Source of the DNA: Torpedo marmorata
Lineage: Eukaryota
DNA length: 64,000 nucleotides
NCBI GenBank assembly: GCA_977017645.1
Contig: OZ360219.1
Span: forward strand, 233,058,001-233,122,000
Reading direction: 5' to 3'
In this document: one piece after another, positions 4,607 to 64,000 of the stretch
Position numbering within the stretch: the first letter of the stretch is position 1
Layout: every line of letters starts with the position of its first letter
Made by a program: the position numbers and the translations under genes
The notes under the pieces: model-generated
Told to the model about the DNA's origin: nothing
Databases searched by the model: none
Seen by the model: only the letters and a program-made list of their open reading frames with translations

Positions 4607-4773
4607 GGCACGTTTGACAAATCTGTTAGCTTTTTTGAGGTGTAATGAGCAGAATAGAGAAGGAGATATCAATGAATATGATGCACAGAACATAGAAAAT
4701 TACAAAACAGTACAGGCTTCACCCCATGATGTTGTGCCAACCTATGTTCCCTGACAAATTATGGGTTTTGACT

Positions 4774-6070
4774 TCTTTTTTTTTCTTTTTAAAATATTTT
4801 TATTGTTTAACATATATCATACATACATAATCTGTAATAAACAGATAACAAATCATATCGTATACATGTAAATATAAAATATTGGAACTACATTAAAATA
4901 TTTTTCATATAAACAAAGGGTAAATTCTGTATGATTTCAAAAATCAACTGTAACAGTCATAGTTAAACCCATTTAACCAATTAATCAAAAAAAAGGATAA
5001 AAAGAGAGTAAAAAAGAAATCAAAAAGAAAAAAATCCAATAATGGCTGGCATTAAGAATGATTGGGAACATCAGAATCAGAATCAGAATCAGAATTTATT
5101 GTCGTGAACAAGTCATGAAATTCGATGTTTTGCGGCAGCATCATAGTGCAATTAACATTCATATTATAACCATCTTACGACATTACTATAAAAAATATAT
5201 AAATAATAGTGCACGAAAAGTAAGGCAGTGTCTTTGGTTCATTGATTATGCAGGAATCTGATGGCAGCGGAGAAGAAGTTTTCCTTGTGCCGTTGAGTGC
5301 TCGTCTTTAGGCTCCTGTACCTTTTTCCTGATGGTAGCAGAGTGAAGAGGGCATGGCCTGGGTGGTGGGGGTCTTTGAGGATAGAGGCTGCTTTTTTAAG
5401 ACACCGTCTCATGTAGATGTCCTCGATGGAGTGAAGTTTGGTGCCTGTGATGTCACAAGCCGAGTTAACAACCCTCTGGAGTTTATTCTTATCCTAAGAG
5501 TTGGCACCTCCATTCCAGGCAGTAATGCAACCAGCCAGAATGCTCTCCATGGTACACCTGTAGAAGTTTACGAGAGTCTTCAGTGGCAATTTAGGAAGAT
5601 TCTGGGAAAATATTTTTCAAATTTTATCAATGATTTTTAAGATCAAATTACATTCATGTCCATTAATTGCTTTGTTTGGTTGTTCTCGAGCACTGGATAT
5701 ACTTCTATCTGCATCTCAGGAGAAAGTTTTAGCTTTTACCATGTTGCTAGCCAGACGAGCAATTTTATTGAAATGGAAAGAAGATTCTTCACCTATTCAT
5801 ACACAGTGGTTACACGATGTAATGACTTATTTAAGCTTAGAGAAAATTAGATACAATATTAAAGACAGTAACTTTCAATTTGATAAGATCTGGGGCCCAT
5901 TCATTGAATTTTATCACAATTGGAAGATTTAAGATGTTTGGATGCTCCAAGAATTCTCTGTCTAGTGTCTGGAGGTCGCTATTTGATCCATATTTTTACT
6001 TTTTTTTAATGGTAACCTTGATTAGAGGAAGGGGTTAGAATAGAATTAGGTTAGTTTTTTTTTGTTTTGT
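4774..6070. mobile_element. 5'-truncated, 5'-inverted L1 insertion (tail on minus strand 4774-5068; inverted segment on plus strand about 5586-6070)
   Basis: Poly(T) plus TTTATT at 4774-4804. The plus segment encodes the L1 ORF2 C-terminus (ARRAILLKWK...LEKIRY) and proximal 3'UTR. TSD TGGGTTTTGACTT at about 4762-4774 and 6071-6083. Confidence 0.85.
5069..5585 (-). mobile_element. Rex1/Babar-type LINE 3' fragment
   Basis: (GATTCT)n tail after GACAATAAA on the minus strand; close paralog of 11177-11685, which encodes the Rex1-type C-terminus (KDPHHPGHALF). Confidence 0.88.
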
Positions 6071-6083
6071 TGGGTTTTGACTT

Positions 6084-10352: not shown

Positions 10353-11176
10353 GAACTGTATCTCCAAAATGATTGTCAGATCAAACCCAGTTAATTATTA
10401 TTGTGCTATTGAACCATCCGCTTGTCAAGAAAGTTTTGTGCATTCAGATAAAGTTCTTTAATTTTGTGCCTGTACAGTTTTCCTCTATTTTGATTTAACT
10501 TGCTGCTGCATCATTAATGTTATATGTTGTTTCTTAAACTTTGTTTATTATTACTCACTTTGTTGTACTGCAATATTACTTATCATTTCTCCTTAAATTT
10601 CGCAATGTTCCCTTGTCTTATTCATTGTATTTGGCAATTTTAAAGTATAAATATTGGTAGAAAGGAATTTAATTTAATCAGAATTTTTCAATAGTTCACT
10701 CTATGTGCTTGCCACAAAAAATATTCATTTATCTGTTGATATAAGTTCTTTGTGTGGCTCAATAGACTCACGATTTATTTTTCCAGCTGTAGAAATATAA
10801 TGAATTTCAAGGGGATTGCTTTGAAACTTCCACTTGTCCTTTCCTGATGTTTAATTTGATTTGCAGGTATATTCAAAGCAGAGCCCAATTAAGGGAATCG
10901 AGAGACACTGAAGTAAAAGTTCAGCAATGAACTCATTGAATAACAGAGCAGGTGGAAGTGTCCAAATATTGTACTTCTGCTTCTAGAGCTTGTGTTCTTC
11001 AATTCTAGTTGTGAAAATGCTATTTTTCTTGATTGATGAGACTTTGGCAGAGAAATATCCCAAAACAGCCCAACTGAGCAAATTGGAACCAGTAGAAAGC
11101 TACTAAGACCAATGCAAAGCTGGAGTTAAGAAGGTAAGAAGGGCTGTTGATCATAAGGCTCCAAGCCATATATTTC

Positions 11177-13308: not shown

Positions 13309-13311
13309 AAT

Positions 13312-18293: not shown

Positions 18294-18309
18294 ATAAATA
18301 ATCAGAAAA

Positions 18310-19155
18310 ATGTCTCAGAAAGCAGCAAAGAAGACAAAAGTGGCTACTGAAACAGCAACTGCCTCTGAATCTGAAGAGGAGATTACCTGTTCTCTGGTAA
18401 CGGTTACTAATCTGATTAAATCAGAGAATAAGGAGTTATACGAGAAATTAATGACAGCCGTGTTCAAGTTGGAGGGAAAGTTGGATCAATCAATAGAGGC
18501 AACAACACAGATGCAAAAATGTGTACAAGAAGTTGAACAACTAGTACATCTTACGACAGACTCGCTGGAAAAAAAGATGAATAATCTCGACTTAAAATAC
18601 AACAATCTGTCATCTCGTTTGGTCAACCTGGAGGGCCGTAGCAGGCGGCAGAATATTCGAATCTTGGGAGTTAAAGAAGGCATCGAGAAGGGGCTCTCTC
18701 CTGTAACAGTCTTTGCTCAGCTACTTACCGATTTAGTTGGGAAAGAAGCAATAACTGGAGAGCTCCTAGTGGATCGGTCATATCGGATTCCTTCTTTCAG
18801 AGGGATATCGGAGGCACGTCCAAGAGTAGTGATTGTTTGCTGTCATTATTATCATAAAAAGGAACAAATCATTCAAGTGGCTCGTCGAAAGAAGGACTTG
18901 AATTTTCAAGGCCAACCTATTAGATTGGTAGAAGATTTATGTCCAGAAGTATTGGCGATGAGAAGAAAGTTTCATGATGTTATGCAGATTTTCTATATTG
19001 AAGGTCTGAGGCCAGTTATGCAGTATCCAGCGCATCTTCGAATTGTTTTGAAAAATGGGCAGAAGATATTTTTTAATTCCGAGGAGCAAGCAAGAAATGC
19101 ACTTGTTAAGATTTTGCCTGGTTCCTCTGACCAGTTGGTACTTGGAATGGGTTAA
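18310..19155 (+). CDS. L1 ORF1p (Transposase_22-type RNA-binding protein), intact 281 aa
   Basis: Coiled coil followed by LEGRSRRQNIRILGVKEG, DRSYR, PRVVIV, EDL, YPAHLRI. Confidence 0.88.
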   Translation: MSQKAAKKTKVATETATASESEEEITCSLVTVTNLIKSENKELYEKLMTAVFKLEGKLDQSIEATTQMQKCVQEVEQLVHLTTDSLEKKMNNLDLKYNNLSSRLVNLEGRSRRQNIRILGVKEGIEKGLSPVTVFAQLLTDLVGKEAITGELLVDRSYRIPSFRGISEARPRVVIVCCHYYHKKEQIIQVARRKKDLNFQGQPIRLVEDLCPEVLAMRRKFHDVMQIFYIEGLRPVMQYPAHLRIVLKNGQKIFFNSEEQARNALVKILPGSSDQLVLGMG

Positions 19156-21054
19156 CTTTTTAGCTTCTAAGGGAGTGATACCATTCTGTAACAGGGGGAT
19201 GTCTAAGGGATTTCTTTCTGTTTGAATTATGATCTTACTATTGGGATGTACCACTGTAGGACTAAGGGTAACTAATTGAATTTTGATTTTTATAATCATA
19301 ATTTTAAGGGAGAAGGGATGTTGATTTTCATTTTCTTTTAGTGTTGATTTCCTTGGGTTTATTTCTTTTTTAAGTTTTGTTTTGGTTTATTTTAGATTTT
19401 AGACACAACAATGTAAATTGGTGCTTGGATATTGATATAGATCTCTTTGTTCTCAAGGGAATAGAAAATGGTGGTTGGGGAGTTATTTTAATTATTATGA
19501 TTGCTTAAATTCTTATGAGAGAATAATGGTGGTGTTATGGTTGTTCTAAAAACGGAGCAGACTATAAAGAATGGGAGGGAAGATGGCGTCGCTGGTTTTT
19601 GCCTGGGAGACTATTTTCCCTCCCCCATCTCTGTTTTCCTTTTTTTCTGTGTGCTGGTCTGTGGGCTGATATTTGGAAAGAGTTTTGTGTGAATTTGGAT
19701 TGGTTTGTAGTTTTTTTTTAATATATAAGGTTATAACTTCTGGAATATTGAAGCGACCTATTACCAATGTGTGATAGACTCCACAGGGAATGTTACTGAG
19801 CAGTTTATCAAGCTGCCTGGACAGATCTCCAGCCTGTGCTGAAATGTCTCTCCTCCATCAGAGGTGTTGGTTTCCTAGGCATCACTCCCACTGAATTTTT
19901 GCTTTGGATGTGATGACTCTTGTTATTCTGGGGTCAGCTTCTTGTCCTGCCAGCATGAGCTTTAAGGGAGTCGATAACTGCAGGGGGAAAGCTGCAGGGG
20001 GAAAGCTGCAGGCACAGTACAGTACGTTTCCCTATATCCGACTACTGCTATTTTGGTGTTTGCTTTTAGCTTTTATTTTTAAACAGGGTTTTTTTTTTTC
20101 CTTCTGTATGTTTAGGTGGATTGGGGGTTGGGGATTCTTTTTTTCTTTTAACAAGTTTTGAACTAAATATTGTGCAGTTTAAATGATATATTAATCTGCA
20201 CATATCAATTGTTGTTATTGATCTGTGATAATAACAGAGAATTGGGGAATTTTAAGTTTGGTTTACTCCTGTCTTTTGCCGATCTGTGTTATTATCAAGT
20301 GTTTTTTCTTGGGGAGGGGTTCCCCTTAATTTTATTTTATTTTATATGCATATATATATAATGTTTTATAAATCCTTTACTATATATGTATTGGACTTTT
20401 ATGTGTGGGGATATAATAGTAAGTTAGTTTGACATTAACAAATACTATAATGAATTAATGATTGGTTACTGGATTGTAGGGAATGATTATCTCTTTAAGT
20501 TCATAAATAAACTTTAGAAAGGAATTATTACTCCTATACATGTATCGCATTGATTGGCTGTTATGGGGTTATTTTTACAAGTTTTGGTATGGAGTTGGAA
20601 CCCCTGCTTTTTTTTTCTCTTTTCTCTTATTTTTTTTCTTTTCTCTTTTTATCTTTTCTCTTTTTTTTTTCTTTTCTCTATTTTTTTTCTTTTTTTTTCC
20701 TTTTTTTTATTCCCTCCCCCTTTTTTTTCTTTCTTCTCTCCGGGGAGGGAAAGTGTTAAATAACACTTGATTTTTACAATTCACTAGGATTTATTTAAAC
20801 TATTTTAAGTTTGTTGGCTTGAGCTTATCCATCACAATCAAGTATTATGGGGTTTCTATTAGTTAGTGAGTAGATCTCCCTCATGTTGGGAGATCTTCAG
20901 TTTGGGGTGGGCCGGGAGTGGGGGTGTATTAGTATAGTGGGTAGGACAAGGTTACCAAAAGGTTTTGATGTATGTCTTTATGGATCCAAAATGGTGGTCT
21001 ACGGGGTTGGCGGAGCTCTCAGGTTAGTAAGTGTGGAATAATTATTTAGTTGGT

Positions 21055-24000
21055 ATGGTTCCAATCAATATAGTATCATGGAATATTAAAGGTTTGAATC
21101 ACCCTATTAAACGGCGTAGAGTTTTGGCACATTTAAGACAATTAAAGGCAGATGTGGCCGTTTTTCAAGAAACCCACATTAAAAATTCCGATAAAGATAG
21201 ATTAATGTTTAGATGGAAGGGTCAATTTTTCCATTCCTGTTCTGAAGCAAAAATCAGAGGAGTTTCGATATTAATTAATCAAAATATTCCATTTGTATTA
21301 CATAATAGTATATTGGACAAACAAAGTTGTTATATTATTTTATTAGGTAAATTATATAATAAACTGGTGGTATTAGCGAACGTTTATGCTCCAAACATTG
21401 ATGATCCAGCTTTTTTTGAAAAGTGTTTTTCATTTTACCTGATTTAAATCAGCATTCATTGATTTTGGGAGGTGATTTTAATTGCTGTTTGAATATGGTT
21501 TCAGACCGTTCTTCATTAAAATTAGCAACTCTCTCGAAATCTACAGTATTATTACATTCCTTTATGTCGATTTATGGTATTACAGATGTTTGCCGTTTTT
21601 TAAATCCCACTAGTAGAAAATATTCTTTTTTGTCCAATGTGCATCGTTCTTATACGAGGATAGGTTACTTTTTAATTGATATTCAATTAATTTCTATGAC
21701 GAAATCATGCGAATATCAAGGAATAGTGATTTCTGATCATGCTCCAGTTATTTTATCTATGAACTTCTATGATATCTCATTTACAAAAAGACATTGGAGA
21801 TTTAATACGACTCTCCTTGAAAATCAAGATTTTTAAAACTTTATGGAGAAGCAAATACAGTTCTTTTTTGCTACTAACTCTTCTCCGATGATGTCTAATT
21901 TGATAGTTTGGGACACTATGAAAGCTTATTTGAGAGGACAAATTATTTCATATACTGCTTATATTAAGAAGAAATCTAATAAGGAAAGATCTGATTTAAT
22001 TAACCAGATTAAACAAATTGACATTCAATTATCTCAAAATAAAAATCCGGATTTTTATCAGAGAAGAGTAGAGCTTAAAGCAAAATTTGATCTTCTATCT
22101 ACTTATCCAATTGAACAACAATTGTTAAGAAGTAGAAGTTTATTTTATATTCATGGAGAAAAAACTGGTAAGTTACTAGCTGGACAATTGAAAGGAATTT
22201 CTGCTAAAAAACAAATAAACAAGATTAGGATGAAGGATGGAAAAATGACAACAGATTATCTTAAAATAAATGAGACTTTTAAGGAATTTTATTCTAACAT
22301 TTATAAATCAGAATTTGGTAATAATCATGATTTGATGTCAGAATTTTTGGATCGATTGAATCTTTCGGTGCTACCTCGGGATGAACGTCCAATCTTGGAG
22401 AAACCTATTTCTCAAGAGGATATAGCCCTTGCTATTTCCTCCCTGCAGTCTGGTAAATCTCCAGGGCCAGACGGATTTCCTGTGTAATTTTATAAATATT
22501 TGTCCAAACAGCTTGTACCTCATCTGTGTGGTATTGGGTGATTCATTTAATAAGGGTAAGCTTCCCGTATCTTTTAATGAGGCCAGTATTTACTTAATTC
22601 TTTAAAAGGGTAAAGAATCGACTGAATGTATATCTTATAGACGCATTTCTTAACTTAATGCAGATATGAAGATTTTGTTTAAAGTATTAACATTCAAGAT
22701 TCAAGATTCAAGATTCAATTTATTGTCACAGCAATAAGACAGTGTCATAAACCACAAAATTTCTTTTTGCCTGCTGCAAGGCAGACAGATTCGCCATCGG
22801 CAGAAATTGCCTAAGCGCCTCTAACATTCCTTACAGTCAGAGAAAGAGAAGCAAAAGAGAGTCCCCCCAGAGTCACCGAGTGTCCATAGATTCGCCTCCA
22901 GCGCTTCCGCAGCCACACAGAGTCCAGTCGAAACGATCAGCATCCCGAGCTTCAGATCTGAACCTCCAACACGGTCAGGTCGCCCTCGGCACCCCCTCAC
23001 ATCCCGGTTCTGATACCTGGTACTCCTCCAGCCAGTTCGAGCCAACCTCCAGCAGTCCGCAGCCCGGCGTGAGTCCCCCGACAGCAGTCTCCAGCAGCCC
23101 ACAGCCTCCGCGGGTTCCTCGCCTCGAGTCGCCAGCAGCCCGCCGCATGCACTGGTCCTTCAGCCTCAGAGCCCCTCACCGGTCCGCCGCCCTGGTCACC
23201 ATCCCATGGGTTGTCTCCTCTGCTTCTCCTTCTCAGACGGGGGTGATCTTCCCGTCCACTGGTGCCCTGCTCCAGTCCCCTGCTTCCCCGGAGTCTGCAG
23301 CCCCTCGTGGCTGCTGCCGATTAATAGGCGCTGCCATCTTGGGCGCAGACCCCGCGATCGCAGGATCTTAAATAAAACCACCGTCGGCTCCTTTAACAGG
23401 CTGTTCAAAGCCCGTGCGGAACCGACGGCAGTCGACTGGGCGGCTGGACCCCGCGGGAGCGCTGTATCTCTGCTGTATCTCCGCTCCCACGCTCCTCGCG
23501 GGTCCGCACCAGCGGCAGCGCTGCCGCTACAGCGGCTCCGGCAGCGCGGCCATCTTTTTATTAGCACATAGATTAGAAAATATTTTACCTTTAATTATCG
23601 ATTTAGATCAGACTGGATTTATTAAAAATCGTTATTCATATTATAACATTAATAGATTGTTGAATATTTTATATTTACCTTCTACTCCGGAGACGGAATG
23701 TATCCTTTCACTAGATGCTGAAAAAGGATTTGATCGGGTGGAGTGGGAATATTTATTTGCTATTTTATATAAATTTAATTTTGGTTCTGATTTTATTAAA
23801 TGGATTAAGTTACTATATTCTTGTCCTATGGCCTCAGTTTGATCTAATTTACAACAATCAGATATGTTTCGGCTTAATAGAGGAACCCGGCAAGGTTGCT
23901 CGTTAAGTCCTTTGCTTTTTGATATGGTTTTAGAACCTTTAGCTGTTGCTCTTCGACATTGTAGAGAATTTAAAGGTATAACTGGAAACAGAATTGAACA

Positions 24001-25705
24001 CAAAGTATATCTCCATGTGGACGATTTATTGTTATTTATTTCAAACCCTGAAGTTTCTATACCAAATATATTAACCCTATTTACTCAATTTAGTCAATTT
24101 TCAGGGTATAAATTAAACTTACAAAAGAGTGAACTATTGCCCTTAAAAGGACCTTTTATTGGTTATTCTAATTTTCCGTTTAAAATAGTGAACAATCAAT
24201 TCCAACACTTAGGAATAACAATTACAAAAAAACCATAAAAATTTACTGAAAGAAAATTTTTGGGTATTAGTTAATAAGGTTAAATTACAATTAACGGGTT
24301 GGTCACCCTTATCAATTACAATGATGGGCCGTATTAATTCGATTAAAATAAATATTTTGCCTAAATATTTATATATTTTCCAATCTTTACCAATTTTTAT
24401 TCCTAAAACTTTTTTTATTTCATTGGATTCGATTCTTTCTTCATATATATGGCAGGGAAAACATACACGTATAAATAAATCACATCTTCAAAAAATTAAA
24501 AGGAATGGAGGATTATCATTTCCATATTTTAGATTTTATTATTGGGTGATTAATATTCGTAATTTGCTTTTGTTATTGCATTTTGATAAGTTACAGAATC
24601 GCCCATCCTGGGTGGAAATGGAATTGAAGTTTTCAAAAAAAACATCTATGTTAGCAATTTTAGGATCCTTTTTACCATTTTCATTTGTTAAAATAACTCA
24701 TAATCCGGTATTGAGATATAGGTTGAGAATATGGGCTCAGTTTAGAATTTTTTTTTAATTTAATATTTTCTCTCTGGCTGGTCCTATTATAGATAATCAC
24801 CTTTTCCAGCCGTCTGTGATGGATGTAGGATTTAAGGAATGGTATAGATTGGGAATTCATAGTTTTAATGATCTTTTTATTCGAGATAGTTTTGCCACTT
24901 TTGAACAATTGGTCAATAAATTTAATCTTACTAACAGATATTTTTTTAGATACTTACAAATTAGACATTTTGTTCAGTTTAAGAGATCAGATTTTCCTCG
25001 AATTTTAAGTTCAAATTTTCTCAATTTACTTTTTAATATATGGTTCTTATCCCAACGTGGATTAACATCATGTATATATAATAATTTATTGGAAATCAGA
25101 GTAGATTCTATGACGGGGATCAAGAATGAATGGGAACGAGATTTTAATGTTCCATTTTCAGATCAAGATTGGTACAATGCTCTTGATCTAATTAACGCCT
25201 CATCTTTTTGTGCTGGACACTGTTTATTTCATTTAAAGTGGTGCATAGAATTCATATGCCTAAACTTAAACTATCACGTTTTTACTCTGACATACATCCA
25301 TTGTGTGAGAGATGTAAAAGTTTTGAAGCTTCACTGATACATATGTTTTGAGAATGCCCCAATTTGGAGAGATTTTGGAAGGATATTTTTAAATCTTTAT
25401 CATTGATTTTTAAGATTAATATTGAACCATGTCCTATAATTGCTCTGTTTGGTTTTTTACGTGAACTTAACATACCTTTTTCTGCATCACGGGAAAAAGT
25501 TTTAGCTTTTTCCACGTTGATTACCAGACGGGCAATTTTATTGAAATGGAAAGATGAGTTATCACCGACACAGAGACAGTGATTACTAGATGTAATGTCA
25601 TTTCTGAGTTTGGAGAAAATTAGATATAATATTAAAGATAGAAAGGTTCAATTTTTAAAGATCTGGGGGCCATTCATTGAATACTATCATGATTGGAAGA
25701 ATTAA
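21055..25705 (+). pseudogene. L1 ORF2 (APE endonuclease plus RT), heavily disrupted and split by an insertion at 22693-23558
   Basis: Collinear fragments 21031-22487 and 23559-25705 with multiple stops and frameshifts. Confidence 0.92.
22693..23558 (-). mobile_element. CpG-rich non-autonomous retroposon with Rex1-type 3' tail
   Basis: TSD TATTAACA/TATTAGCA (22685-22692, 23559-23566; empty site seen in the paralog at 46001-46025). Minus-strand tail GACAATAAAT(TGAATCT)n; head AAAAGATGGCCGC. Confidence 0.82.
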
Positions 25706-26375
25706 CAAAACTGACTGTCCTGGGGACTCTTTGTCCAATGCTTGGAGGTCGGTACAGGATCCATTTCCTTTTTTACAATATCAAGGTAACCTTGCTTAGA
25801 GGGAGGGGTTAGAATAGATTAGTTATTAGTGTTTTTTTTTGTCTTTCTTTTTATTTTATTTTCAAGTGATTTTTTTTAAGGTAATTATAAGGAACGAGAG
25901 TTTTAACCTATATTAAGAATTTAGTTACGACAATTTACTTAGTTTTTTTTTACATACATTTATGAATACCAGCTGATTTTTTGAATGTTTTTCTTAATTT
26001 TGTTACTCTGTTTTCATGTTTATTATTGAAACTCAATAAAAATATTTTAAAAAGGATAATAGAATAATAGTAACGGCGGTACGTTAAGTAATTGCGCTGA
26101 TTTCAGATTCGCACAAAACAAAGACACACTCCAACTGGAAGGGTCTCTGGACAGGGGGTGGTGTCTGGACGGGGGCGGGGGGCTTTAACAACTTCCCGCA
26201 GCTCGGCCAATCTGCCCCGGCTTGAAACTGTGGCCAGAGCCGGACCGGTGGCTCCTTTCACGCCGTGTTTACCACAGCTCCACATGCTGCGCATGAAAAG
26301 GTTTGAACGGATGCTCGCCGCTTCGGGGGGGCTAACATTTGTGCGAACACTGATCTTTCTGACTGGAAGGCACTT

Positions 26376-27564: not shown

Positions 27565-27670
27565 TATTAAAAATAAATATTATTAATAAATAGTAGAGTC
27601 ACACGGAGTTGTTTTAGCAGTTCAGCAGTCATTCACCAGTCCTACTGCCCATGATAAGAAGCTGTTCCTC

Positions 27671-29724
27671 CACCAGCATTATTTATTTTGGTGATAGAAC
27701 CTTTGGCAGAATTAGTTAGAAAAGATCCTAAAATAGTTGGTATTAAAGTTGGAATGGAAGAACATAAAATTAGTTTATTTGCAGATGATGTATTGATATA
27801 TATGACAAAATCTACTACATCCTTAGTACAATTGTCTGTGTTATTGAGAGAATATGGGGAAATATCTGGATATAAAATTAATTCAGATAAAAGTGAAATT
27901 ATGGCATTATCACAAGGGGATTATAGTAGATGTAAAGAAATTACACAATTTAAATGGGCAAAGGAAGGAATTAAATATTTGGGAATAAGGGTTGACACAA
28001 AATTGGCTAATTTATACAAATTAAATTATTTACCATTATTTGTGAAAATAAAGAAAGATTTAGAAAATTGGAAAGATTTACCTATAACTTTAATGGGAAG
28101 AGTAAATTGTATTAAAATGAATATTTTTCCAAGAATTCAATATCTTTTTCAATCAATTCCTTATGAAATTCCTCAAATTTTTTTTAAAGATTTAAATTCA
28201 ATTATTAGAAATTTTTTATGGAAAGGAAAGTTAGCAAGAGTAGGTATGGAAAAATTAACTTGGAATTATGAAATGGGTGGTTTACAACTTCCTAATTTCC
28301 ACAATTATTATAAAGCAACTCAACTAAAATTTGTTAATGAATTTTTTGATTCAACTAAATCTTCTGCTTGGATTAAAATAGAATTAAATAATATAGGAGA
28401 AGATTCCAAAGAAGAAGTTATTTATAAATGGGATTCTAAATTAAAATCAACAAGAAAGAAAAATTCGCCTATTTTTAAACATTTGTTAGAAATATGGAAT
28501 AAGACGGATAAGGAAATAGGAGGAAAAGGATTGATTTCTTCAAGGATGCCTTTATATCAAAATGGACTTATTCCATTTACTATTAATAATCAATTATTTA
28601 AAATTTGGTTTCAAAAAGGAATTAAGAAGATTAATGATTGTTTTGAAGCTGGGAAATTTATTACTTTTCAAAGAATGAAAGATAAATTTAATATATTAGA
28701 TAATACACTTTTTGCTTATTATCAAATTAGAGCTTTTCTGATTGAGAAATTAGGTTATGCTTTGATTTTACCAAGACAAAATGAATTAGAATTATTAGTT
28801 ACTAAAGGAGATGTCAATAAATTTATTTCTCAAATGTATAAATTGTTTCAGAGGAAAATACTTGAAGTAGGAATTCATAAATCAAGATTAAAATGGGAAT
28901 TAGGTTTGAATGTAAGAATAGATGAAAATCATTGCAAAGAATTATGTAAATTAAGTATGACGAAGATTATTAATGTTAGATATAGATTAGTACAATACAA
29001 TTTTTTTCATCAATTATATTTAACACCTAAAAAACTAAAGAAATTTAATCCGACATTATCAGGTTTATGTTTTAGATGTAATAAAGAGGAAGGGTCTTTT
29101 GTACATTCTACATGGTTTTGTCCAAAAGTTTATGATTTTTGGTTGAAAGTTAAAAAAAATTTAGATAAAGTATTTAAGATTACATTTTGTTTGGAGATAT
29201 CAGAAAATTTAGTATTAAGATGAAATTAAATATGTATCAAATAGAATTTTTGTGAATTGCTTTAGCTGTTTCAAAGAAATGTATTGCTATTACTTGGAAA
29301 TCTGATTTAGATTTAGGATTAGAAAGATGGCATGTAGAACTTCGTTCGTGTATACCACTTGAAAAAATTACTTATAATTTACGTAACAAATATCATTTTT
29401 TCTTAAAATTTGGAGCCCATATATGAAAGTTGTTGGTTTAAGGATTTGAAGATCTCTGGATATCGGATCTACTGGCATACTTGACCTCCATAATAGAATT
29501 AGTTTATAGATTGGCATTCTCCTTACTCTATCTTTTTCTTTCTTTTTTCTTCTTCTTTTTCTATTTTTATTTTATATTTTTATTTTTATTAGATTAGTGG
29601 GGTTGGGAGGGTTGGGGAGGGGAGGGGGGGTGAAAATGTATCACAAATACTTTGATAATTTTATATTTTATTTTATGTATTTTGTGATTTAAAAATTTTA
29701 AATAAAATATTTAAAAAAAAAAAA
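27671..29724 (+). mobile_element. 5'-truncated L1 (lineage A)
   Basis: ORF 27688..29223 is closely similar to 13..2555; poly(A) tail; TSD AAGCTGTTCCTC (27659-27670, 29725-29736). Confidence 0.96.
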
Positions 29725-30115
29725 AAGCTGTTCCTCAGCCTGGTGCATCTGGCTCTAATACTTCTGTATCTCTTTCCCAACGGGAGTAGCTGGAAGAAGC
29801 TGTGTGCAGGGTGGTAGGGATCCTTGCCATCTTACTTACACCAGTGACATATTCCCATGACATTATTATCAGAGGGACAAATGACTTTTGTTGGTTGTGG
29901 AATATCAAATGTTAAAGTTTTTTCTGGTAGTGTTTGGGCCTTAGCTGAATGCAGTACAGTTAGTGGGACAGAAAAGTATACCCTCCAGCCAGACTAAGCC
30001 AGTCTCTGTCACCATTAAACCTGATCATCAGCATCAGAACAACATGCCAGCAGGAAGGGCATTTTCAGGATTTTCCCATTCTGGGCCTAGGTCATTTTAA
30101 TGTAATGGTTACATT

Positions 30116-32076: not shown

Positions 32077-32109
<33 letters not shown>

Positions 32110-35941: not shown

Positions 35942-38396
35942 GTGACACACAAAAGTCTGCAGATGCTGTGACTGTAGTAAAAACACAGAAATGCTGGAGG
36001 AATTCAGTAGGTGTTGCAGCGTCCATTGGAGGTAAAGACACATAACCGACATTTCGGGCCTGAGTCCTTCTTCAAGGTATAAATAAAAAATAAGCAGGCA
36101 TATGAACTAAAAGACAGGGAAGGGGGAGGAGTACAGACCCAACAGACAAAAGGTGTTAAGTGGATATGGAGAGGAGGCCAGGAGTGAGGAAAGGTGATAA
36201 TTGATTGGGGAGAAGGGGTGGTTTTGGCTCTGTGAATGCAGAGCTGGGGTAAAGGTTTGCGGGTGATCTCAGTCTGGCAGTGTATGAGACCATAGACAGA
36301 CATGTCAGCAAGGGAATGGGGCAGGGAATTGAAATGGGTGGCCACTGGGAGATCCCTTCTATTGCTGCGGACAGAGCCAATGTGCTCAATAAAGTGATCT
36401 CCCAGTCTGCGCCCAGACTCTCTGATGTAGAGGAGACCACAACGGGAGCTACGTTGACCAGTTCCTGAATTCACATGAGAAACAAGTTATGAATGTACTA
36501 TAAAAATCATGTTGAAACCCATATTATGAATTATTCAACTAAAAAGAATGATATAAAAAGAAAAAAAAAAGAACCAAACAAAAAAAACCTAAAAACTAAA
36601 TCTAATCTATCCCCTCCCTCTAATCAAGGTTACCTTTGTAAGAAAAAAGGAAAACAATTGATCAGATAGCGACCTCCAGACAGGAATGGAATTCTCACAA
36701 GGGTCAGAGTGTGAAGAGGTGCAGTTGAGATGGCTGTGAGAGTTGGTGGGTTTGTAGAAAATGTCTGTTGAGAGTTTGTCTCCCGAGATGGAGACAGAAA
36801 ATCGAGAAAGGGGAGAGTGTTGCCAGAGATGGATCAAGTGAATTTGAGGTCAGGGTGGAAGTTGGCAGCAAAGTGGATAAAGTTGATGAGCTCATCATGG
36901 GTGCATGAGACGGCACCAAAGTAGTCGTCAATGTAGCAGAGGAAGAGTTGAGAGGCCTTGACTGTGTCGGTTTGTAGCATGGAGTGCTCCACATAGTCAA
37001 CAAAAAGGCAAGCATAGCTGGGACCAATACGGATACCCAAGGCTACCCCTTTGACCTGGAGAAAGTGATCTGACTCAAAGGAGAAGTTATTGAGGGTGAG
37101 CACAAGTTCTGTCAGCCAGAGGAGGATGGTGGTGGATGGGGTAATGGTTGGGTCTATTGTCCAGAAAGAAACAAAAGGCTTTGAGGCCTTTGATATGGGG
37201 GGCATAACTTCTACAAACCCATCAGCTCCACAGCTACCTCAACTACACCATACCTTGCCCCCTGTAAGAATTCCATTCCTTTCTCTCAATTCCTCTGTCT
37301 CCATCGCATCTGCTCCCAGGACGACCTCTTCCATGCCAGATCATCGGAGATGTCCTCCCTCTCCCATCAACTCGGCCCACACTCCGACCCGCTCATCTGC
37401 CCTGGCCCACTCCCCTCCTCCCATTCGCAACAAGGACAGGATTTTCCTTGTCCTCACCTACCACCCCAACAGCCTTCGTATCCAACACATCATCGTCCAC
37501 CATTTTCACCACCTACTACGTGATCCCACCACCAGACACATCTTCCCTGCTCCTACCCTCTCTGCCCCGGACCGCTGCCTCCATGACTCCCTCGTCCACT
37601 CTTCTATTCCCACCAATTCACCCCTTGGCACCTACCCCTGTGACCGCAGGGGGTTCTCCACTTGTGCCTACACCTCCTCCCTCACTACCATTCGGGACCC
37701 CAAACAGTCTTTCCAAGTGAAGCAACACTTCACTTGTGAATCTGCAGGGGTCATCTATTGCATCCAGGGCTCCCGCTGTGATCTCGTCTACATCAAAGAG
37801 ACTGGACGCTGACTGGGAGATCACTTTGTTGAGCACCTCGGCTCTGTCTGCCGCAATCGTGGGGATCTCCCAGTGGCCACCCATTTCAATTTCCCACCCC
37901 ATTCACTTGCCAACATGTCTGTCCATGGTCTCATGCACTGCCAGACTGAGACCACCTGCAAATTGGAGGATCAACACCTCACATTCCGTCTGGGCATCCT
38001 CCAAGCAATGGCATTAACATCGACTTCTCTGGTTTCTGTTAGTCTCCACCACACTCCATCTATCCCTATGTCTCCTTTCCTCTAGCTCAGTCTCTCTCTC
38101 TCTTCCCTTTTCCCTCTGTCTCCTTTACCCAGTTCTGCATTCACAGCCAACCCCCTCCTCCCACCTCCCAATCAATTCTCACCTTTCCTCTCTCCTGGTC
38201 TTTTCTCCATATCCAATTGACACCTTTTGTCCGTTGGTCTGTACTCCTCCCCCTGCCCTTTCTTTTAGTTCAGACACCTGCCTGCTTTTTACTCATACTT
38301 TGAAGAAGGGCTCAGGTGCGAAACTTTGATTATATATCTTTACAACCTACGGACGCTGCAAGTCCTGCTGAGTTCCTCCAGCATTTCTGTGTTTTT
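35942..38396. mobile_element. Penelope-like element, inverted tail-out structure (minus arm 35942-37205, plus arm 37206-38396)
   Basis: RT (GVALGIRIGPSYACLF, YIDDYFG) and GIY-YIG (FTCESAGVIYCI...YIKETGR). TSD ACCAGAACA(T/A)GTAA at 35928-35941 and 38397-38410. Confidence 0.9.
36464..36680 (-). mobile_element. Tail-less L1 3'UTR fragment embedded in the Penelope minus arm
   Basis: Reverse complement matches 5965-6060 (TGTCTGGAGGTCGCTAT...GGTAACCTTGATTAGAGG). Confidence 0.78.
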
Positions 38397-44524: not shown

Positions 44525-46348
44525 GTGAAACTTGGTTGAATTGTGTACTAACAACAACCTCTCACTCAATGTCACCAAAACCAAGGAGTTAATTGTGGAG
44601 TTTAGGAGGGAAAACCTGAGGTGTACGATCCAGTGATCATTGGGGGATCAGAGGTGGAGAGGATGAGCAAATTTAAATTCCTGGGAATCACTCTCTCGGA
44701 GGACCTTTCCTGGACCAAACACACAAATGTCATCGTAAAGGAAGTATGTCAGCGCCTCTACTTTCTCAGGAGTTTGTGAAGATTGGGTATGACATCGGAA
44801 AGCTTACCAAACTTACACAGATGTGTAGTGCAAAGTGCGGTGACTGGCTGCATCACTGTCTGGTATGGGGAACCAATACTTCTGAGTGGAAAGCCCTTCA
44901 AAAGGTAGTGGACACAGCCCAGGACATCAAGGCAAAACTTTCCCCACCATCAAGAAAATCTACATAGAAAGCTGCCATCAGAGAGCAGCAGCAATCATCT
45001 TTTCTTTTAAAATATTTTTATTGAGTTTCAACAAATAAACATGTTTACAGAATAGTGATATCTGATCATGCCCCATTGATTTTATCTATGAATTTTTATG
45101 ATATCCCGTTCATAAAAAGACATTGGAGATTTAATACGACTCTCCTCGAAAATCAAGATTTCTTAAATTTTATGGAGAAGCTTTTTTGCTACTAATTCTT
45201 CTCCATTGATGTCTAATTTGATAGTTTGGGACACTATGAAAGCGTATTTAATAGGACAAATTATTTCATATCCTGCTAACATTAAGAAGAAGTCTAATAA
45301 GGAAAGATCTGATTTAATTGACCAGATCAAACAAATTGACATTCAATTTGCTCAAAATAAAAATCCGGATTTGTATAAGAGAAGAGTAGAGCTGAAAGCA
45401 AAATTTGATCTTCTATCTACCTATCCAATTGAACAACAATTGTTAAGAAGTAGAAGTCGCTTTTAAATTCATGGAGAAAAAACTAGTAAGTTACTAGCTG
45501 GACAATTATAAGGAATTTCTGCTAAAAAACAAATAAATTAAATTAGCATGAAAGATGAAAAAATGACAAAAGATTATCTTAAAATAAATGAGACCTTTAA
45601 GGAATTTTATTCTAACCTTTATAAATCAAAATTTTGTAATAATTATGACTTAATGTCAGAATTTTTGGAGCGATTGGATTTTCCGGTATTATCTCGGGAT
45701 GAATGTGCAAGCTTGGAGAAACCTATTTCTCAAGAGGATATAGCTGTAGCTATTTCCTCATTACAGCCTGGTAAATCTCCAGGGCCAGACGTATTTCCTG
45801 TAGAATTCTATAAATCTTTCTCTAAACAGCTTGTACCTCATCTGAGTGTGGTATTGGGTGAATCATTTAATGAGTGGAAGCTTCTCGCATCATTTAACAA
45901 GGTCAGTATTTCCTTAATTCTTAAAAAGGGTAAAGAATCAACTGAATTTGCATCTTATAGACCCATTTCATTACTCAATGTGGATATGAAGATTTTGTCC
46001 AAAGTATTAGCACACAAATTAGAAAATATTTTACCTTTAATTATCGATTCAGATCAGACTGGTTTTTATTAAAAATCATTAATATAATATTTATAGATTG
46101 TTGAATATTTTATATTTACCCTCTACTCCAGTGACAGAATGTGTTCTTTCATTAGATGCCAAAGTAGCAGCAATCATCAAGGATCAACACCACCCAGGAC
46201 ACGCTCTGTTCTTGCTGCTGCCATCAGGAAAGAGGTATAGGTGCCACAAGACACGCACCACCAGGTTCAGGAAAAGTTGTTACCCCTCCGCCACCAGACT
46301 CCTAAACAAAAACTCAATCAGAGACTCATTTAAGGACACATACTTTGC
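44525..46348 (+). mobile_element. Rex1-type fragment (44525-44999 plus 46163-46348) split by an inverted L1
   Basis: LNVTKTKE, FKFLG, LQKVVDTAQDI; resumes AAIIKDQHHPGHALF. Confidence 0.87.
45000..46162. mobile_element. 5'-inverted L1 (lineage B): about 47-bp tail on minus strand, then 1.1 kb of ORF2 on plus strand
   Basis: 45005-45045 is the reverse complement of 26016-26053; 45050-46162 parallels 21721-23720. TSD AG(C/T)AGCAGCAATCATC at 44984-44999 and 46163-46178. Confidence 0.9.
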
Positions 46349-54192: not shown

Positions 54193-55496
54193 CAAGCATT
54201 AGGTATTAATGACGAAGTAGTGAAATGGATTCAACAATGGTTGGATAGGAGATGCCAGAGAGTAGTGGTGGAAAATTGTTTGTCAAATTGGAGGCCGGTG
54301 ACTAATGGAGTGCCTCAGGGTCCATTGTTGTTTGTCATATATATTAATGATCTAGATGATAGGGTGGTAAATTGGATTAGTAAGTATACAGATGATACAA
54401 AGATTGGTGGTGATGTGGACAGTGAAGAGGGATATCAAAGCTTTCAGGGGGATTTAGGACAGTTAGAAGAGTGGGCAGAAACATGGCAGATGGAGTTTAA
54501 TACTGATAAATGTGAGGTGCTACATTTTGGTAAGATTAATCAGCAAAGGTCATACATGTTAAATGGAAGACAATTGAGAAGTGCAGTAGAACAGAGGGAT
54601 TTAGGAACTCTGGTACATAATTCCCTGAAAGTTGAGTCACACGTAGATAGGGTGGTGAAGAAAGCATTTGGTATGTTGGCCTTCATAAATCTGAGTATTG
54701 AATATAGGAGTTGGGATGTCATGTTGAAGTTTGTATAAGGCATTGGTGAGGCTTTTTTTTACTTTTTTCTTTTTTCTTTTTACTTTAGTAGTTTAGTAGG
54801 GATGGGAGGGTTAGGGAGGGGAGGGAGGGCGGGGGGGTGAAAATTTATCACAAGTATTTTGATCATTTCATATTTTACTTTATGTATTTTGTGATTTAAA
54901 ATTTTAAATAAAATATATTTTAAAAAAGGCATTGGTGAGGCCAAATTTGGAATATTGTGCGCAGTTTTGGTCGCCGAATTATAGAAAGGATATAAACAGA
55001 ATAGAGAGAGTGCAGAGGAGATTTACAAGAATGTTGCCTGGGTTTGAGTTACAGGGAAAGGTTGAACAGGCTGGGACGTTATTCCCTGGAGCGTAGAAGA
55101 TTGAGGGGTGATTTGATAGAGGTATTTAAAATTATAAAGGGGACAGATAGAGTAAATGTGGACAGGCTTTTTCCATTGAGAGTGGGGAAGATTCAAACAA
55201 GAGGGCATGGATTGAGATTGAAGGGGGAAAAGTTTAGAGGAAACATGAGGGGAAATTTCTTCACTCAGAGGGTGGTGGGAGGGTGGAATGAGCTTCCAGC
55301 CGAAGTGGTAGATGCAGGTTCAATTTTAATGTTTAAAGAAAAGTTGGATAGGTATATGGACGAGAGAGGTGTGGAGGGTTATGGGCCGGGTGCGGGTTAG
55401 TGGGACTAGATGGGAGAATGTGTTCGGCATGGACTAGAAGGGCCGATCTGGCCTGTTACTGTGCTGTAAGTGTTATATGGTTTATATGGTTTATAT
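54193..55496 (+). mobile_element. CR1 LINE, 5'-truncated, containing a short L1
   Basis: GVPQG, YINDLD, KYTDDTKIG, RRRLRGDL; tail (TTATATGGT)n. Confidence 0.92.
54753..54925 (+). mobile_element. 173-bp L1 3' end
   Basis: Matches 29540-29712; perfect 16-bp TSD AAGGCATTGGTGAGGC (54737-54752, 54926-54941). Confidence 0.93.
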
Positions 55497-57859: not shown

Positions 57860-60102
57860 TGGATGAAGCTGGAATAATAACCTGCAAACAGTCGTGTCAA
57901 CGTTCCAACAGCATGTCAACTTTCCAAACAGAAGAGAGAACATCTTAGATAGGGTGAACACAAATGTCACTGAAGCATACAAGGCTGTCACCTGCCCCAA
58001 CCTCGGAAACTCAGACCGCATTTCCATTCTGCTGACTCCTGCGTACAGACCACTGGTGAGTCGAATCAAATCAGTTTGCCGGGAGATTAGAACTTGGCCA
58101 GGGGAAGCCACAGCAGAGCTGCAGGACTGCTTTGGAACAAATGACTGTCAGAGATTCAGGGAGGTGGCCACCTACAACGACCAGTTCAACATCAATGAAA
58201 ATACAAGCACAGTGACCAGCTATATAGGTAAGTGTATGGAGCATGTCATGGTGACCAAACATGACACAGCCAGGGCAAACCAGAATCTATAGCTAGATGT
58301 GTAAGTCCGTGCACTACTAATAATTCTTCGAGCAATCAGGAAGACAAATTGGACTTATGCACTGAAGATCCACAGTCAACTGTGTGACACTGGCAACATT
58401 AGGTGCATGTGGCAATGTATTAAAACTATAATGGACCACAAGTAAACCTTGCAGGTCAGTGATAATGACGCCTCCCTTCTTGACAGGCTGAACACCTTCT
58501 ACACACGGTTCAATGCGGAAAACAACACAATGTCAAAGAAAGCCTCATTCCCCCCCTAAGGAACAGGCATCCTGCATAGCCGCAGCTGAGGTGTGGAGGA
58601 TCCTACCCAGGGTGAACCCACACAAAGCAGCAGGACCAGATAACATACCTGATCGGGTGCTGAGGGACTGTGCTGACCAGCTGACTGAGCTCCTAACGGA
58701 CATCTTCAATATCTCACTCCAGCAGTCCATTGTCCCTTCAGGATTCAAGGCAGCCACCATCATTCCAGTGCCCAAGAGAGTGACGGTAGCTGAACTAAAT
58801 GACTACCATCCAGTGGCACTGATCTCCACAATCATGAAGTGCTTTGAGCAACTGGCAATGGAGCGCATCAAAGCACACCTATCAGCAACAACAGACACAT
58901 TCCAGCTTGCCTATCGGCCACATCGATCCACAGACTTTGCTATAGCCATGAGCCTCCACTCTGTCCTGATCCACCGAGAGAATGATGCCTCATACGCCAG
59001 TCTGTTGTTCATTAACTTCAGCTTGGCGGTCAACACAATCATACAGTACCTCAGAGGCTAGTGGATAAACAGACCTCGCTGGGACTCAGTACCCCTCTCT
59101 GCAACTGGATCCTGGAATTCTTGATTGAAAGACCACAGTCTGCCTGGGTAGGCAGCAAATCCTCAAGCCCCATCGCACTAGCTCACCTCAGGGCTGCCTG
59201 CTCAGCCCGCTACTGTTCATGTTGCTAACTCACGACGGACTGCCAGGTTCAGCTCAAACAGAATCAAGTTTGCGGATGACACAACGGTAGTTGGCCTCAT
59301 CGGCAACAATAATGAGTCGGCTTACAGAGAGGAGGTTGAAAGGTGTGTACAGTGTGCATTAGCAACCACCTGAGTCTCAACGTTAACAAGTAAAGGAGAT
59401 GATTGTGGACGTCAGGAGGACGAAGGACCACACCCCACTACATTTCAATAGCTCCATCGTAGAGAGAGTGGGGAGCACAAAATTCCTTGGCATCAATTTA
59501 AAGGACGACCTACAATACCTCCTCATTAGTCAGGAAGTTGCAGCAGCGCCTATACTTCCTAAGGAAGATGAGGAGGGTAAGGCTACCAGTCACCATCCTA
59601 ACAGTGTTCTACAGGAGAGAATGTCCTGGCATCATAGTATGTACAGTGTAGTATGGTAGCTGAAAAGCATCAGATCAGAGGTCAGTATGGAGGGTGATTA
59701 AAGCTGCTGAGAAGATCATTGGGGGCTCCCTTCCTCTATCGATGACATCTACAGGAAGTGGTGCTAAAAGAGGGCTCAGAGAATCATCAAGGACTCTTAC
59801 TATCCAGCCCGCAGTATCTTTGAGACACTGTCTTCTTGGAAGAAAACAGCAGCATAAAAACCAGGACTGCCAGGCTGGGAAATAGCTTCTTCCTGCAGGC
59901 CGTGAGACTGTTGAACAATCCTCGAAATCCAAAAATTATTTTTATATATATTTATTTTGGATCACTATGTATATATATCGTTTGTGTGTAGGGTGTACTG
60001 TGTGTCTGTGTGTGTGCACTCTGGTACAGAAATACGCTATTTTGCCGGGTTGTACATGTATATGTACAATCAGATGACAATAAACATGAACTTGAACTTG
60101 AA
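57860..60102 (+). mobile_element. Rex1/Babar-type LINE, decayed
   Basis: KAAGPDNIP, DIFNISL, LNDYHPVALIS, KFADDTTV; tail GACAATAAACATGAACTTGAACTTG. Confidence 0.9.
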
Positions 60103-61074
60103 TACTTTGATGGAACAATTTTCCAGATTTACACACAAGTGATTTACACTCAATGTTCAACCTCCACATGAGTGGCTACCATACTCATCTACAGAATAAA
60201 ATACAACCAAAGATCAAGCTTACTTCATGAGCACCTCCCATCACATCATTGCTCTCGAGTTCAAGAGCAGTAGGATCATGGGCTGTCAGCTCTAAGTTTT
60301 CCATCGGGTCAAGCAATTTCTTCATCATGAATAGATATAAATCCTGGAATTCTCAACCCAAAATCATAATGGGAATGATCAGCTTAAAGATGACAGTGGT
60401 TCAAGAAGATAACCACCAAACTTGCATTGAAAAAAAAAAAGAACATTTAAAGAAATAAGGTAGCAACTCAGTGAATTATTTAATAGCTGAAGTACAGACA
60501 CTCTATACAGATCTATTTTAAACAAGCTAACGAAATCCTAGCACATCATGTTTTGGAATCATTGTTAAGTATTCAATCTCACAGTTTTGAAATACCGGTA
60601 TATTGTTTTGTAGATGGATAATTCCAGATGTAGAATTAACGATTAAAAAAAACCTTCTATTTCTTTGTTCAACATTTAGTGTGGAATAGCTGTGAAAACA
60701 CAAATGTTGGTTTGCATTTCAGATTGCCAGTCATCAATTTATACCCTATTAGGCAACACCTTCCATTGAATAGTACCCAGTAACCCAAGATTGTTTCATT
60801 GGAATCATTCAAATTAGGCAAAGCTTACTGATCATCCACCTTCAGTTCAGGATCTTTAGTCAATCTGATTGAATGACTTCTTTGGAGTCAGGTACTGTAA
60901 CATTAGAAATCTGGCCCATTAATGAATTATAAACTTCCATGTTGGTTTTTCCACGGAAAAAAACATTTCAATATTCACTTGCTATTCATGCTGAACAATT
61001 CCAATTTTCTCAACAATTAACAGTTGATATTGATTACATTCAGTAATGCAGTAAAAAGAATTATAAAACTTGAA

Positions 61075-61114
61075 CCTCAACCACGGTGTCTACAGATTTT
61101 CGTGTTTTACTTTT
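61075..61114 (+). mobile_element. 40-bp Penelope-terminus micro-insertion
   Basis: TCAACCACGGTGTCTACAGATTTTCGTG matches 43911-43938; perfect 14-bp TSD TTATAAAACTTGAA (61061-61074, 61115-61128). Confidence 0.78.
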
Positions 61115-61153
61115 TTATAAAACTTGAATGCTGTACATTCTTGTACTGTGTAA

Positions 61154-64000
61154 TTTTTTTTTGAATATTTTATTTTAAATTTTAAATTTTCACACAGTAA
61201 TACATACATGAATAATATATATTGTTAATTTCAAAGATATATTTTATAATTATTTTTGTATTACATAGTGTATCTACCCCTTCCCTTAACCCCCCCCAAG
61301 CCCTTACAACATTTTCCAAACATTTCAAATAAAAATTATTACTTAATATTTCTAATCCCACCCTCCACCCATTCCCTCCCCTTAAATTCCCTCCCCTTCC
61401 TAAAAACTAAAAAAGAAAGAAGGAAAAAAGAAAGTAATATAATATTACTTATAAAAGACATCTATATGGATCACCCGGGCATTCACAGTTCGACGCAAGG
61501 TTTTCAACATTATTTTTATTATTTAAATTTGAGAGTCAACAGGGCCTGGGATATGGAATAACACATTTACATACTTATACCTAATGTCTGGATATATGGA
61601 CGCCAAATTTGCAAAAATACCCCATATTTATTTCTCATATTATATGTTATTTTTTTCCAAAGGAATACAACTCTGCATCTCTGCATTCCATCTTTCCATA
61701 CCTAAGTTTGTATCTGATCTCCAAGTGATTGCTATACACTTCCTCGCTACCGCTAAAACGTTTTTAACAAATTTCAATTAATATATTGATAACTTCAATT
61801 TTGGTCTAGTTCCTTCAACATTCCCTAATAAAAATAGATCAGAGTTTTATGGAAGTATAACACCTGTAATTTGTTTTAACAGTTTCCCTAATTCCATCCA
61901 AAAGAATTTTACCTTAGAGCATAACCAAGTTGAATGCAAAAAAGTTCCCTCTTGTGGTGTAAGATATAGTTGATGTAAAAGATTATACTGTACTAATCTA
62001 TATCTTACATTAATAGTGTTGGTCATGCTATCTTGACATAAATCCGACCATCTTTTCTCATCGATTGTTACATTAAGATCTTGTTCCCATCTCTGTCTAG
62101 ATTTATGAAGTCCTTGTTTAAGGGCTTCTCTTTGTAACAAGGAATATATTATAGAAGTAAATTTTCTAGTATTTCCTTTCCTAATAAGAGTTTCCACTTC
62201 ACTATAATTTTGTAACAGCATATCTGAACCTAGTTTTTCCCTTAAATATCCTCTTAATTGAAAATAACAAAAAAGAGTATTATTCGGTATTCCATATTTA
62301 TTTCTTAACTGTACAAACGTCATCAATGTCCACCTTCATAACAATCTTCTATCTTCTTAATTCCTTTCTGTAACCATTTATTTAAAAATTGATTATCTTT
62401 TGTAAAAAGTATAAGATTATTCTGTATCAATGACGTTTTAGGTGATATGGTCCCTTTTGTCCCTATCTCATCATTAATCTTATTCCAGGCATTAATCAAG
62501 TGTTTTAATAATGGTGTTTCTTTAACTCCTACCAATAATTTTGAGTTCCATTTATATATAAATTCTTCTTCTACTTTCTCTCCTATTTTTCCTAACTCTA
62601 TTTCAACCCATGCAGGTTTTTCTTCAGTTTCAAAAAAAGAAGTCATAAATCTCATTTGTGCCGCTCGGTAATAATTTTTAAAGTTAGGAAGTTGTAAACC
62701 TTCAAACTCATATTTCCATTTTAAACGTTCTATCGAGACTCTTGACATTTTACCCGTCCAAAGAAATTTTCTCACTTGTATATTTAATTCTTGAAAAAAA
62801 AACCTGTGGTAATAAAATAGGTATGGTTTGATACAGATATTGTATTCTTGGAAATATATTCATTTTTACACAGGTAACTCTTCCTATCAATGTTATAGGT
62901 AAATCAATCAATTTTTCCAAATCTTCTTTAACCTTTTTAAGTAATGGTAAATAATTCCACATATAATTTTTTTTAATTATTATCCGTTCGAATTCCTAAA
63001 TATTTTATCCCATTATGCGGCCATTTAAACTGAGTATTTATTTTACATATAGTATAATCTCCTTCTGTAAGGGGCATAATTTCACTTTTGTCCCAATTTA
63101 TCTTATAACCTGAAACTTTTCCATATTCTTCCAATCTAAAATGTAACCTTTGTAAAGAGGTCTCAGGCTCTGTCAAATATATTAAAACATCATCCGCAAA
63201 TAGACTAATTTTATGTTGTTCTTGGGCAACTCGAAATCCCTTAATTTCCAAATCACTTCTCATTACCTCTGCAAGTGGTACTATAGCTAATATAAATAAA
63301 GCTGATGACAATGGGCATCCTTGCCTACTAGACCTTGTCAAACAGGACGGAGTCGATATTTGTCCATTAGTCACTACTTTAGGTTATGGAGCATTATATA
63401 ATGCTTTAATCCAGTTTATATAAGTCTATTTAAGAGGTCAAATTATGTTATTCTTCAAAAATTAAAAAGAAATATATGAGAGAAATAGAACAATTAGAAA
63501 CAGAAATAACAATTTTAGAAAAGGACTTACAAAAGAGAAGCTCTGAAGATAAGCGTAGACAACTAACTAATAAAAAACTTCAATATAATGTATTACAGAC
63601 TTATAGAACGGAGAAGACTATTATAAGAACTAAGCAAAGATATTATGAACTAGGTGAACGATCACATAAAGTACTAGCATCGCAATTAAAAACAGAAGAG
63701 GTGTCAAGAACAATTAATGCAATTAAAAGTGAATCTAATGTTATTACTTATAAACCCCAAATAATAAATGATTCTTTCAAAAACTTTTATTCCCAATTAT
63801 ATAAATCGGAGTCTTTGCAAGATGATAGCAAAATTGATGGATATTTATCACAGATAAATTTACCAAGATTAAATATGCAAGAGCAGTTAGAATTGAGTAC
63901 CCAGTTTACACAGAAAGAAGTGAAAGACACAATGAGCTCATTACAAAGTAATAAAGCACCGGGAGAAAATGGTTTTCCACCAGAGTTTTATAAAGAGTTT
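61154..64000. mobile_element. L1 (lineage C) with 5' inversion: minus-strand 3' part 61154-63421, plus-strand upstream ORF2 from 63422 to the window end
   Basis: Poly(T) at 61154; minus ORFs with RQGCPLS, LFADD up to INWIKALY; the plus strand then reads VYLRGQI...QRYYELGE...KAPGENGFPPEFYKEF. Confidence 0.88.

Follow-up and report, generated by a model that had tools for sequence, protein, structure and literature searches.

Probable twin-primed, 5'-inverted L1 insertions in the genome of a likely shark or ray

Introduction

Do L1 retrotransposons insert with their front part turned around in genomes other than those of mammals? The question is raised by a 64,000-nucleotide (nt) stretch of contig OZ360219.1, here called the window, in which dead L1 copies change strand at three places: E1 (4762-6083), E2 (44987-46178) and E3 (61154-64000). 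The initial annotation had described each of these as upstream L1 sequence meeting, head-to-head, the reversed 3' end of an L1, and all three strand switches are present. A structure of this kind is what the twin-priming model, reportedly due to Ostertag and Kazazian in 2001, sets out to explain. It is highly probable that in E1 and in E2 one target-site duplication (TSD) encloses an L1 insertion whose front arm is inverted, that E3 is a likely third such insertion, that all three were likely twin-primed, and that the genome is likely that of a shark or ray. The evidence consists of the geometry of the events, their TSDs, one empty site, the family identity of the arms and the contiguity of the two arms of E1. 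From these observations, we infer that both nicks at the target primed complementary DNA (cDNA) on one RNA and that the ends of the cDNAs were then joined.

Structure of the three events

E1 is made up of the following parts.

4762..4774, unstranded: left TSD copy TGGGTTTTGACTT, exact 13 bp
4775..5039, minus strand: poly(A)-primed arm, the poly(A) tail and distal 3' untranslated region (UTR) of a minus-strand L1
5040..6070, plus strand: inverted arm, the C-terminal part of open reading frame 2 (ORF2) and proximal 3' UTR, broken by a nested insert
5071..5588, minus strand: nested fragment, presumably L2-like, with a (CTGATT)n tail and 90% identity to 11175-11687; it takes the place of 222 bp of L1
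6071..6083, unstranded: right TSD copy TGGGTTTTGACTT, followed by TTT/AAA

The arms were read against the other L1 copies in the window.

1..3180, plus strand: copy A, a reference with L1 ORF2 and 3' UTR and a match to RVT_1; 5' end off the window, no inversion in view
18298..26055, plus strand: copy C, a near full-length, uninverted reference L1 with ORF1, a 1.9-kb spacer, endonuclease, reverse transcriptase (RT) and 3' UTR
27659..29736, plus strand: copy D, a control, an ordinary 5'-truncated L1 with a 12-bp TSD
36492..36695, minus strand: copy F, a 3' UTR fragment, unbroken across the meeting point of the two arms of E1
54737..54941, plus strand: copy G, a control, a short 5'-truncated L1 with a 16-bp TSD and empty-site joints in the contig sets X1 and X2

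The reversed arm of E1 carries the 3' motif AATAAAAATATTTTAAAA at 4804 and is 71% identical to copy F and 62% identical to the 3' UTR of copy C. From about 5042, equivalent to copy C 25110, the forward arm reaches as far as 6070, a position within the proximal 3' UTR. It matches copy C on both sides of the nested insert, with 5042-5069 corresponding to C 25110-25137 and 5587-6068 to C 25360-25845 (76% identity). Copy F is continuous from where the forward arm ends (78% identity) into the start of the reversed arm (71%), so the two arms abut within about 20 nt. The TSD is exact over 13 bp, or 16 bp long if one mismatch is allowed. Since this longer form is followed by AAA, the target reads TTTTT/AA, which fits the L1 endonuclease consensus TTTT/AA as it is given in PMC2912911 (cited here, like the other papers below, from an excerpt). 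Moreover, the first 8 nt of the TSD and the sense start of the reversed arm are identical at 7/8 positions (TGGGTTTT versus TGGATTTT), a match of the kind that internal priming would need.

No TSD was seen around the nested insert at 5071-5588. The open reading frame of its relative at 11175-11687 matches RVT_1 and ALKBH8_N, and it is from this domain make-up that we take the insert to be L2-like.

E2 lies inside an older long interspersed nuclear element (LINE).

44987..44999, unstranded: left TSD copy AGCAGCAATCATC, exact 13 bp, inside the older LINE
45000..45049, minus strand: poly(A)-primed arm, the tail and last ~45 nt of a family-C L1
45050..46165, plus strand: inverted arm, from the end of the endonuclease domain to the RT motif LDA, about amino acids (aa) 224-600 of ORF2, with a match to RVT_1
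46166..46178, unstranded: right TSD copy AGCAGCAATCATC, exact 13 bp

The reversed arm, about 45-55 nt long, is identical to copy C 26004-26052 at 44/50 positions, and the forward arm (45050-46159) is 88% identical to C 21721-22692 and 86% identical to C 23559-23718. As in E1, the TSD is exact over 13 bp and reaches 16 bp with one mismatch. An uninterrupted paralog of the host LINE provides an empty site, where the TSD sequence occurs once, at 33310-33322, with 12/13 positions identical; this single copy confirms the TSD of E2. The microhomology at the inversion junction is 0-5 nt. A perfect 12-bp palindrome stands at that junction (45036-45047), at a position where copy C is not palindromic, and may be a small fold-back formed during cDNA joining.

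E3 reaches the end of the window.

61154..63425, minus strand: poly(A)-primed arm, the tail, 3' UTR and ORF2 aa 623-1259 (numbered on reference P0001), 67% identical to copy A from position 997
63427..64000, plus strand: inverted arm, ORF2 aa 297-482 (P0001), truncated where the window stops, 68% identical to copy A 1-458

The two arms do not overlap on P0001, and the left flank is non-L1 sequence. Barring a deletion, the end of the forward arm is expected about 420 bp beyond the window, near ORF2 aa 622. As a separate observation, a 59-nt inverted repeat, 83% complementary with its halves 70 nt apart, lies at 43745-43932, and a related piece seemingly lies just left of E3 near 61077.

In copy C, ORF1 and ORF2 are separated by about 1.9 kb (19156-21030), either a long spacer or additional inserts. 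A GC-rich insert with a (TTCAAG)n end occupies 22693-23558 within its ORF2, on the opposite strand as judged by that tail. A search for a TSD of copy C, and likewise for its 5' UTR, found none.

Twin priming, the probable route, and its alternatives

The initial annotation had held that the first two events are bracketed by 13-16 bp TSDs, as was found, and that each of these two was one event. For E1 and E2 the sequence supports a single-event, 5'-inverted structure; E3 is probable, and its second TSD would lie off the window. The possibility that the arms of an event come from different subfamilies was examined, and the two arms of each event match one L1 family: copy C is the match for the two arms of E2, the clade of copy A and P0001 takes in those of E3, and those of E1 match copies F and C, at the resolution that the copies in the window allow. 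In all three events, the inverted arm originates upstream of the poly(A) arm and shows no second tail. Among random pairs of 30-nt windows spaced 300-1500 nt apart, an exact shared run of at least 13 nt arose by chance in 3/20,000. Copies D and G, ordinary truncated copies with TSDs of 12 and 16 bp, indicate that long TSDs are normal in this DNA.

Twin priming would account for these structures as follows. ORF2p would nick an AT-rich target, and a first cDNA would be primed at the poly(A) tail. A second nick 13-16 bp away would release a free 3' end that pairs with an internal site of the same RNA, from which another cDNA is primed in the upstream direction, and the ends of the two cDNAs would be joined head-to-head. 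E1, with arms abutting within about 20 nt, would be the canonical case. In E2, the first cDNA would have halted after about 50 nt, or been shortened afterwards, leaving the 2.3-kb gap.

Antisense element sequence at a 5' junction is also produced by R2 snap-back (PMC11371274), and the 12-bp palindrome of E2 may be a small fold-back of this type. However, snap-back copies an existing cDNA, whereas the inverted arms described here hold upstream sequence that is absent from the poly(A) arm, so an RNA was needed as template. Snap-back was ruled out as the main mechanism because the sequence of the poly(A) arms is not repeated in the inverted arms.

Several features weigh against twin priming. About 2.3 kb of L1 is absent between the arms of E2 (C 23718 to C 26004), which thus do not abut; its poly(A) arm, at about 50 nt, is much shorter than its inverted arm, and its target, CATC/AA, is a partial fit to the endonuclease consensus. 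In human inverted inserts, the median internal deletion is 14.5 bp and the poly(dT) arm is on average 2.6-fold longer (bioRxiv 2024.08.27.596794), and the gap and tiny poly(A) arm of E2 are far from these norms. The arms of human inverted L1 copies lie within 20 bp of each other in 132/287 cases (46%; PMC12016303), so longer gaps exist, and the excerpts give no figure for gaps as large as that of E2. In E1, a T-rich tract at the arm ends keeps a short gap from being told apart from a short overlap, and the inversion junction is only ~30 bp from the nested insert. E3 leaves no TSD to check, as its forward arm runs off the window. Across the events, microhomologies were scored against relatives only 67-88% identical. 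Finally, no listed contig joint bridges E2 or E3 (15 joints listed, 4990 more, swamped by paralogs). This check placed the contig sets X1, X2, X6 and X7 (4 of 24 runs) on 44200-64000; it used contigs only, and E1 lies outside that stretch. Single-copy X1 contigs differ from the window by about 2% (19/980, 30/1613 and 28/1339), so X1 is not this exact DNA. Summed depth is alike for the two arms of E3 within X1 and within X2; this was not counted as evidence, as depth is no measure of copy number.

Of the rival explanations, the improbable case of two L1 copies that arrived independently, head-to-head, at one site, or of one event that used two RNAs in this way, survives best, and is most plausible for E3 and E2. 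The far end of E3 is out of view, and on L1 coordinates 2.3 kb lies between the arms of E2, which leaves a shared template open to doubt. Against this, the forward arms of E1 and E2 stop internally, without a 3' end or tail, and in both events one TSD pair encloses both arms, where two insertion events should have left an additional tail and TSD. The arms of each event are moreover of one family and overlap by no more than a few bases in L1 coordinates, and the left flank of E3 is not L1.

Very improbable, too, is that ordinary 5'-truncated insertions had their front part inverted later through DNA repair or recombination. Such a history would give the same final geometry. E1 does have a later rearrangement near its junction, with the loss of 222 bp, and 2.3 kb is gone from E2, as break repair might cause. 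However, one breakpoint would have to coincide with the 5' junction without damage to the TSD, in E1 and again in E2. No flanking inverted repeats are found at these arms among those listed (25 of 31 pairs), and the complementarity of the E1 TSD to the RNA points to priming. It is barely credible that the events are assembly artefacts, chimeric joins of repeat copies: while the contig check did not confirm the junctions and the families are highly repeated in X1, a misjoin is not expected to yield, two times over, proper TSDs together with an endonuclease site, a matching empty site and contiguous arms.

L1 lineages and the host

The elements belong to the L1 clade by their structure: copy C has an ORF1 with the L1 RNA-binding domain (PF02994) and an ORF2 with APE endonuclease (PF03372) and RT (PF00078), a poly(A) tail is present in the events, and their arms align onto full-length ORF2 references in translated comparison. 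As had been proposed, more than one L1 lineage is represented among the events; trees and ORF2 mapping place them in two deep fish-type lineages. In trees of 17 rows each, with 13 references picked from 120, the forward arm of E2 is sister to copy C (100/100). The arms of E3, placed in separate trees, each group with copy A and P0001 (forward 100/99, reversed 83/95), in a clade other than that of copy C. E1 is 76% identical to copy C and has the same best references. Three subfamilies are thus probably represented among E1-E3. Among the matches listed, the ORF2 of copy A is 35-61% identical to 120 full-length relatives, the named ones mostly teleost, and 37-38% identical to mammalian L1 ORF2; in the trees, the two mammalian references sit apart on a long branch of their own.

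The assignment of the host to the elasmobranchs, likewise made at the outset, agrees with a resident CR1 element (one query) that is closest to ray and shark proteins. Its frame at 46333-46923 has 38 relatives, the best named being from Hypanus sabinus (72%), Pristiophorus (68%) and Chiloscyllium (64%), followed by Callorhinchus (58%), Scyliorhinus (57%) and Mobula (55%); stork and turtle relatives reach 34-42%. This indirect evidence favours a chondrichthyan, perhaps a ray. No convincing host-gene domain was found among 91 short frames of the window.

How often inversion occurs

Self-comparison, the listing of open reading frames and translated searches together give 8 L1 pieces in the window (A, E1, C, D, F, E2, G and E3). 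The initial annotation had counted about 7 insertions, three of them inverted; the total is revised and the three strand-switched pieces stand. Copy F was considered as a fourth inversion and ruled out, there being neither a partner arm nor a tail nearby.

Inverted pieces thus number 3/8 (95% confidence interval (CI) 8.5-75.5%), or 2/4 among copies with both TSDs (6.8-93.2%). The claim that elasmobranch L1s invert frequently does not follow from these counts, since 3/8 is too few and comes from a window picked for the trait. Among human and chimpanzee L1 insertions, inversions account for 639/2068 (30.9%; PMC2912911), and another study puts the inverted share of L1 insertions at 18.4% (PMC12016303); 3/8 is compatible with either. 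At the human/chimpanzee rate (639/2068), the probability of at least 3 of 8 is 0.47. At a true rate of 2%, this probability is 0.0004, a contrast that is overstated because the window was chosen for the trait from a very large scan.

L1 loci from metagenome contigs offer a weak comparison, which lends no support to a high inversion rate elsewhere. In the 80 of 86 loci that were kept, which are at most 74% identical to the L1s of the window and many of which look like collapsed full-length elements, twin-priming geometry was seen in 0/80, and inversion in 0/12 of the truncated copies with at least 400 bp upstream. Opposite-strand ORF2 hits occur in 2/80 of these loci, solely downstream of the L1 3' end. 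The opposite-strand RT hits at L024:6030-6494 and L028:8873-10201, past a complete L1 3' end, are separate elements and do not have twin-priming geometry. The family-C 3'-end pattern, searched in the metagenome contigs, gave 0 matches.

Other repeats in the window

An element of the long terminal repeat (LTR) type occupies 12409-18294, with ~900-bp repeats that are 96% identical and gag- and integrase-like frames, and ends directly before the L1 ORF1 at 18298. From its translations, we take it to be Ty3/gypsy-like. A second LTR-type element lies at 38770-43265, and a 92% identical fragment of it, at 3184-4607, adjoins the 3' end of copy A. On the minus strand, 26839-27216 encodes a 126-aa frame with a CENP-B N-terminal domain, probably a remnant of a Tigger/pogo-type transposase. 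Rfam gave 0 matches in the window.

Relation to known systems and significance

The events share with twin-primed L1 copies of human and chimpanzee the head-to-head arms of one element and the poly(A) tail; E1 and E2 share a TSD of 10-20 bp, and E1 shares in addition the endonuclease-type target and abutting arms (PMC2912911, PMC12016303, bioRxiv 2024.08.27.596794). They differ in the probable chondrichthyan host, in L1s that are fish-type and only distantly related to those of mammals (37-38% protein identity), and in the 2.3-kb gap and ~50-nt poly(A) arm of E2.

A second comparison is with LINE inserts from assays in cultured cells. Inverted LINE inserts had TSDs of 10-20 bp, and inversion was associated with long TSDs (PMC4245944). 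In the same study, human L1 gave inversions in human cells and none in chicken DT40 cells, and inversion was tied to both host and LINE species. The one further case was an insert of the zebrafish element Nimb-2_DR in DT40 that carried a 5' inversion, indicating that the structure is not strictly mammalian. Unlike these inserts in DT40 and HeLa cells, the events described here are germline L1 copies that arose naturally in the genome of a non-mammal.

No chondrichthyan report of a 5'-inverted L1 was found in the literature searched; key zebrafish L1 papers lie outside it, and an earlier non-mammalian count may exist. Among the matches listed for "twin priming", none concerned fish by its title or the start of its abstract, and the words inversion, inverted and twin have 0 occurrences in the excerpt of The Evolution of LINE-1 in Vertebrates (PMC5381506). 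The events most likely represent a known mechanism in a host group for which the literature searched held no record, and no new mechanism is proposed.

The initial annotation had suggested that twin priming is ancient or convergent. This follows weakly, and the events are equally well explained if LINEs with long TSDs share this capacity in general. A wider reading, somewhat short of an even chance, is that in elasmobranchs, L1s from two or more deep lineages undergo twin priming about as often as in mammals, in roughly a fifth to a third of insertions, including the form with a very short poly(A) arm seen in E2. In that case, the vertebrate L1 machinery would have twin priming as an ancestral trait, with no need for a mammal-specific host factor. 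If true, this would run against the view drawn from the chicken-cell assays.

In the literature searched, nearly all descriptions of 5' inversion concern mammalian L1, and the two fish-type lineages of this probable shark or ray show that the route works outside mammals. This enables a comparative test in which vertebrate genomes are surveyed for how inversion rate varies with TSD length, with L1 lineage and with host. A further consequence concerns the repeat annotation of shark and ray genomes, in which one inverted insertion gets read as two oppositely oriented copies.

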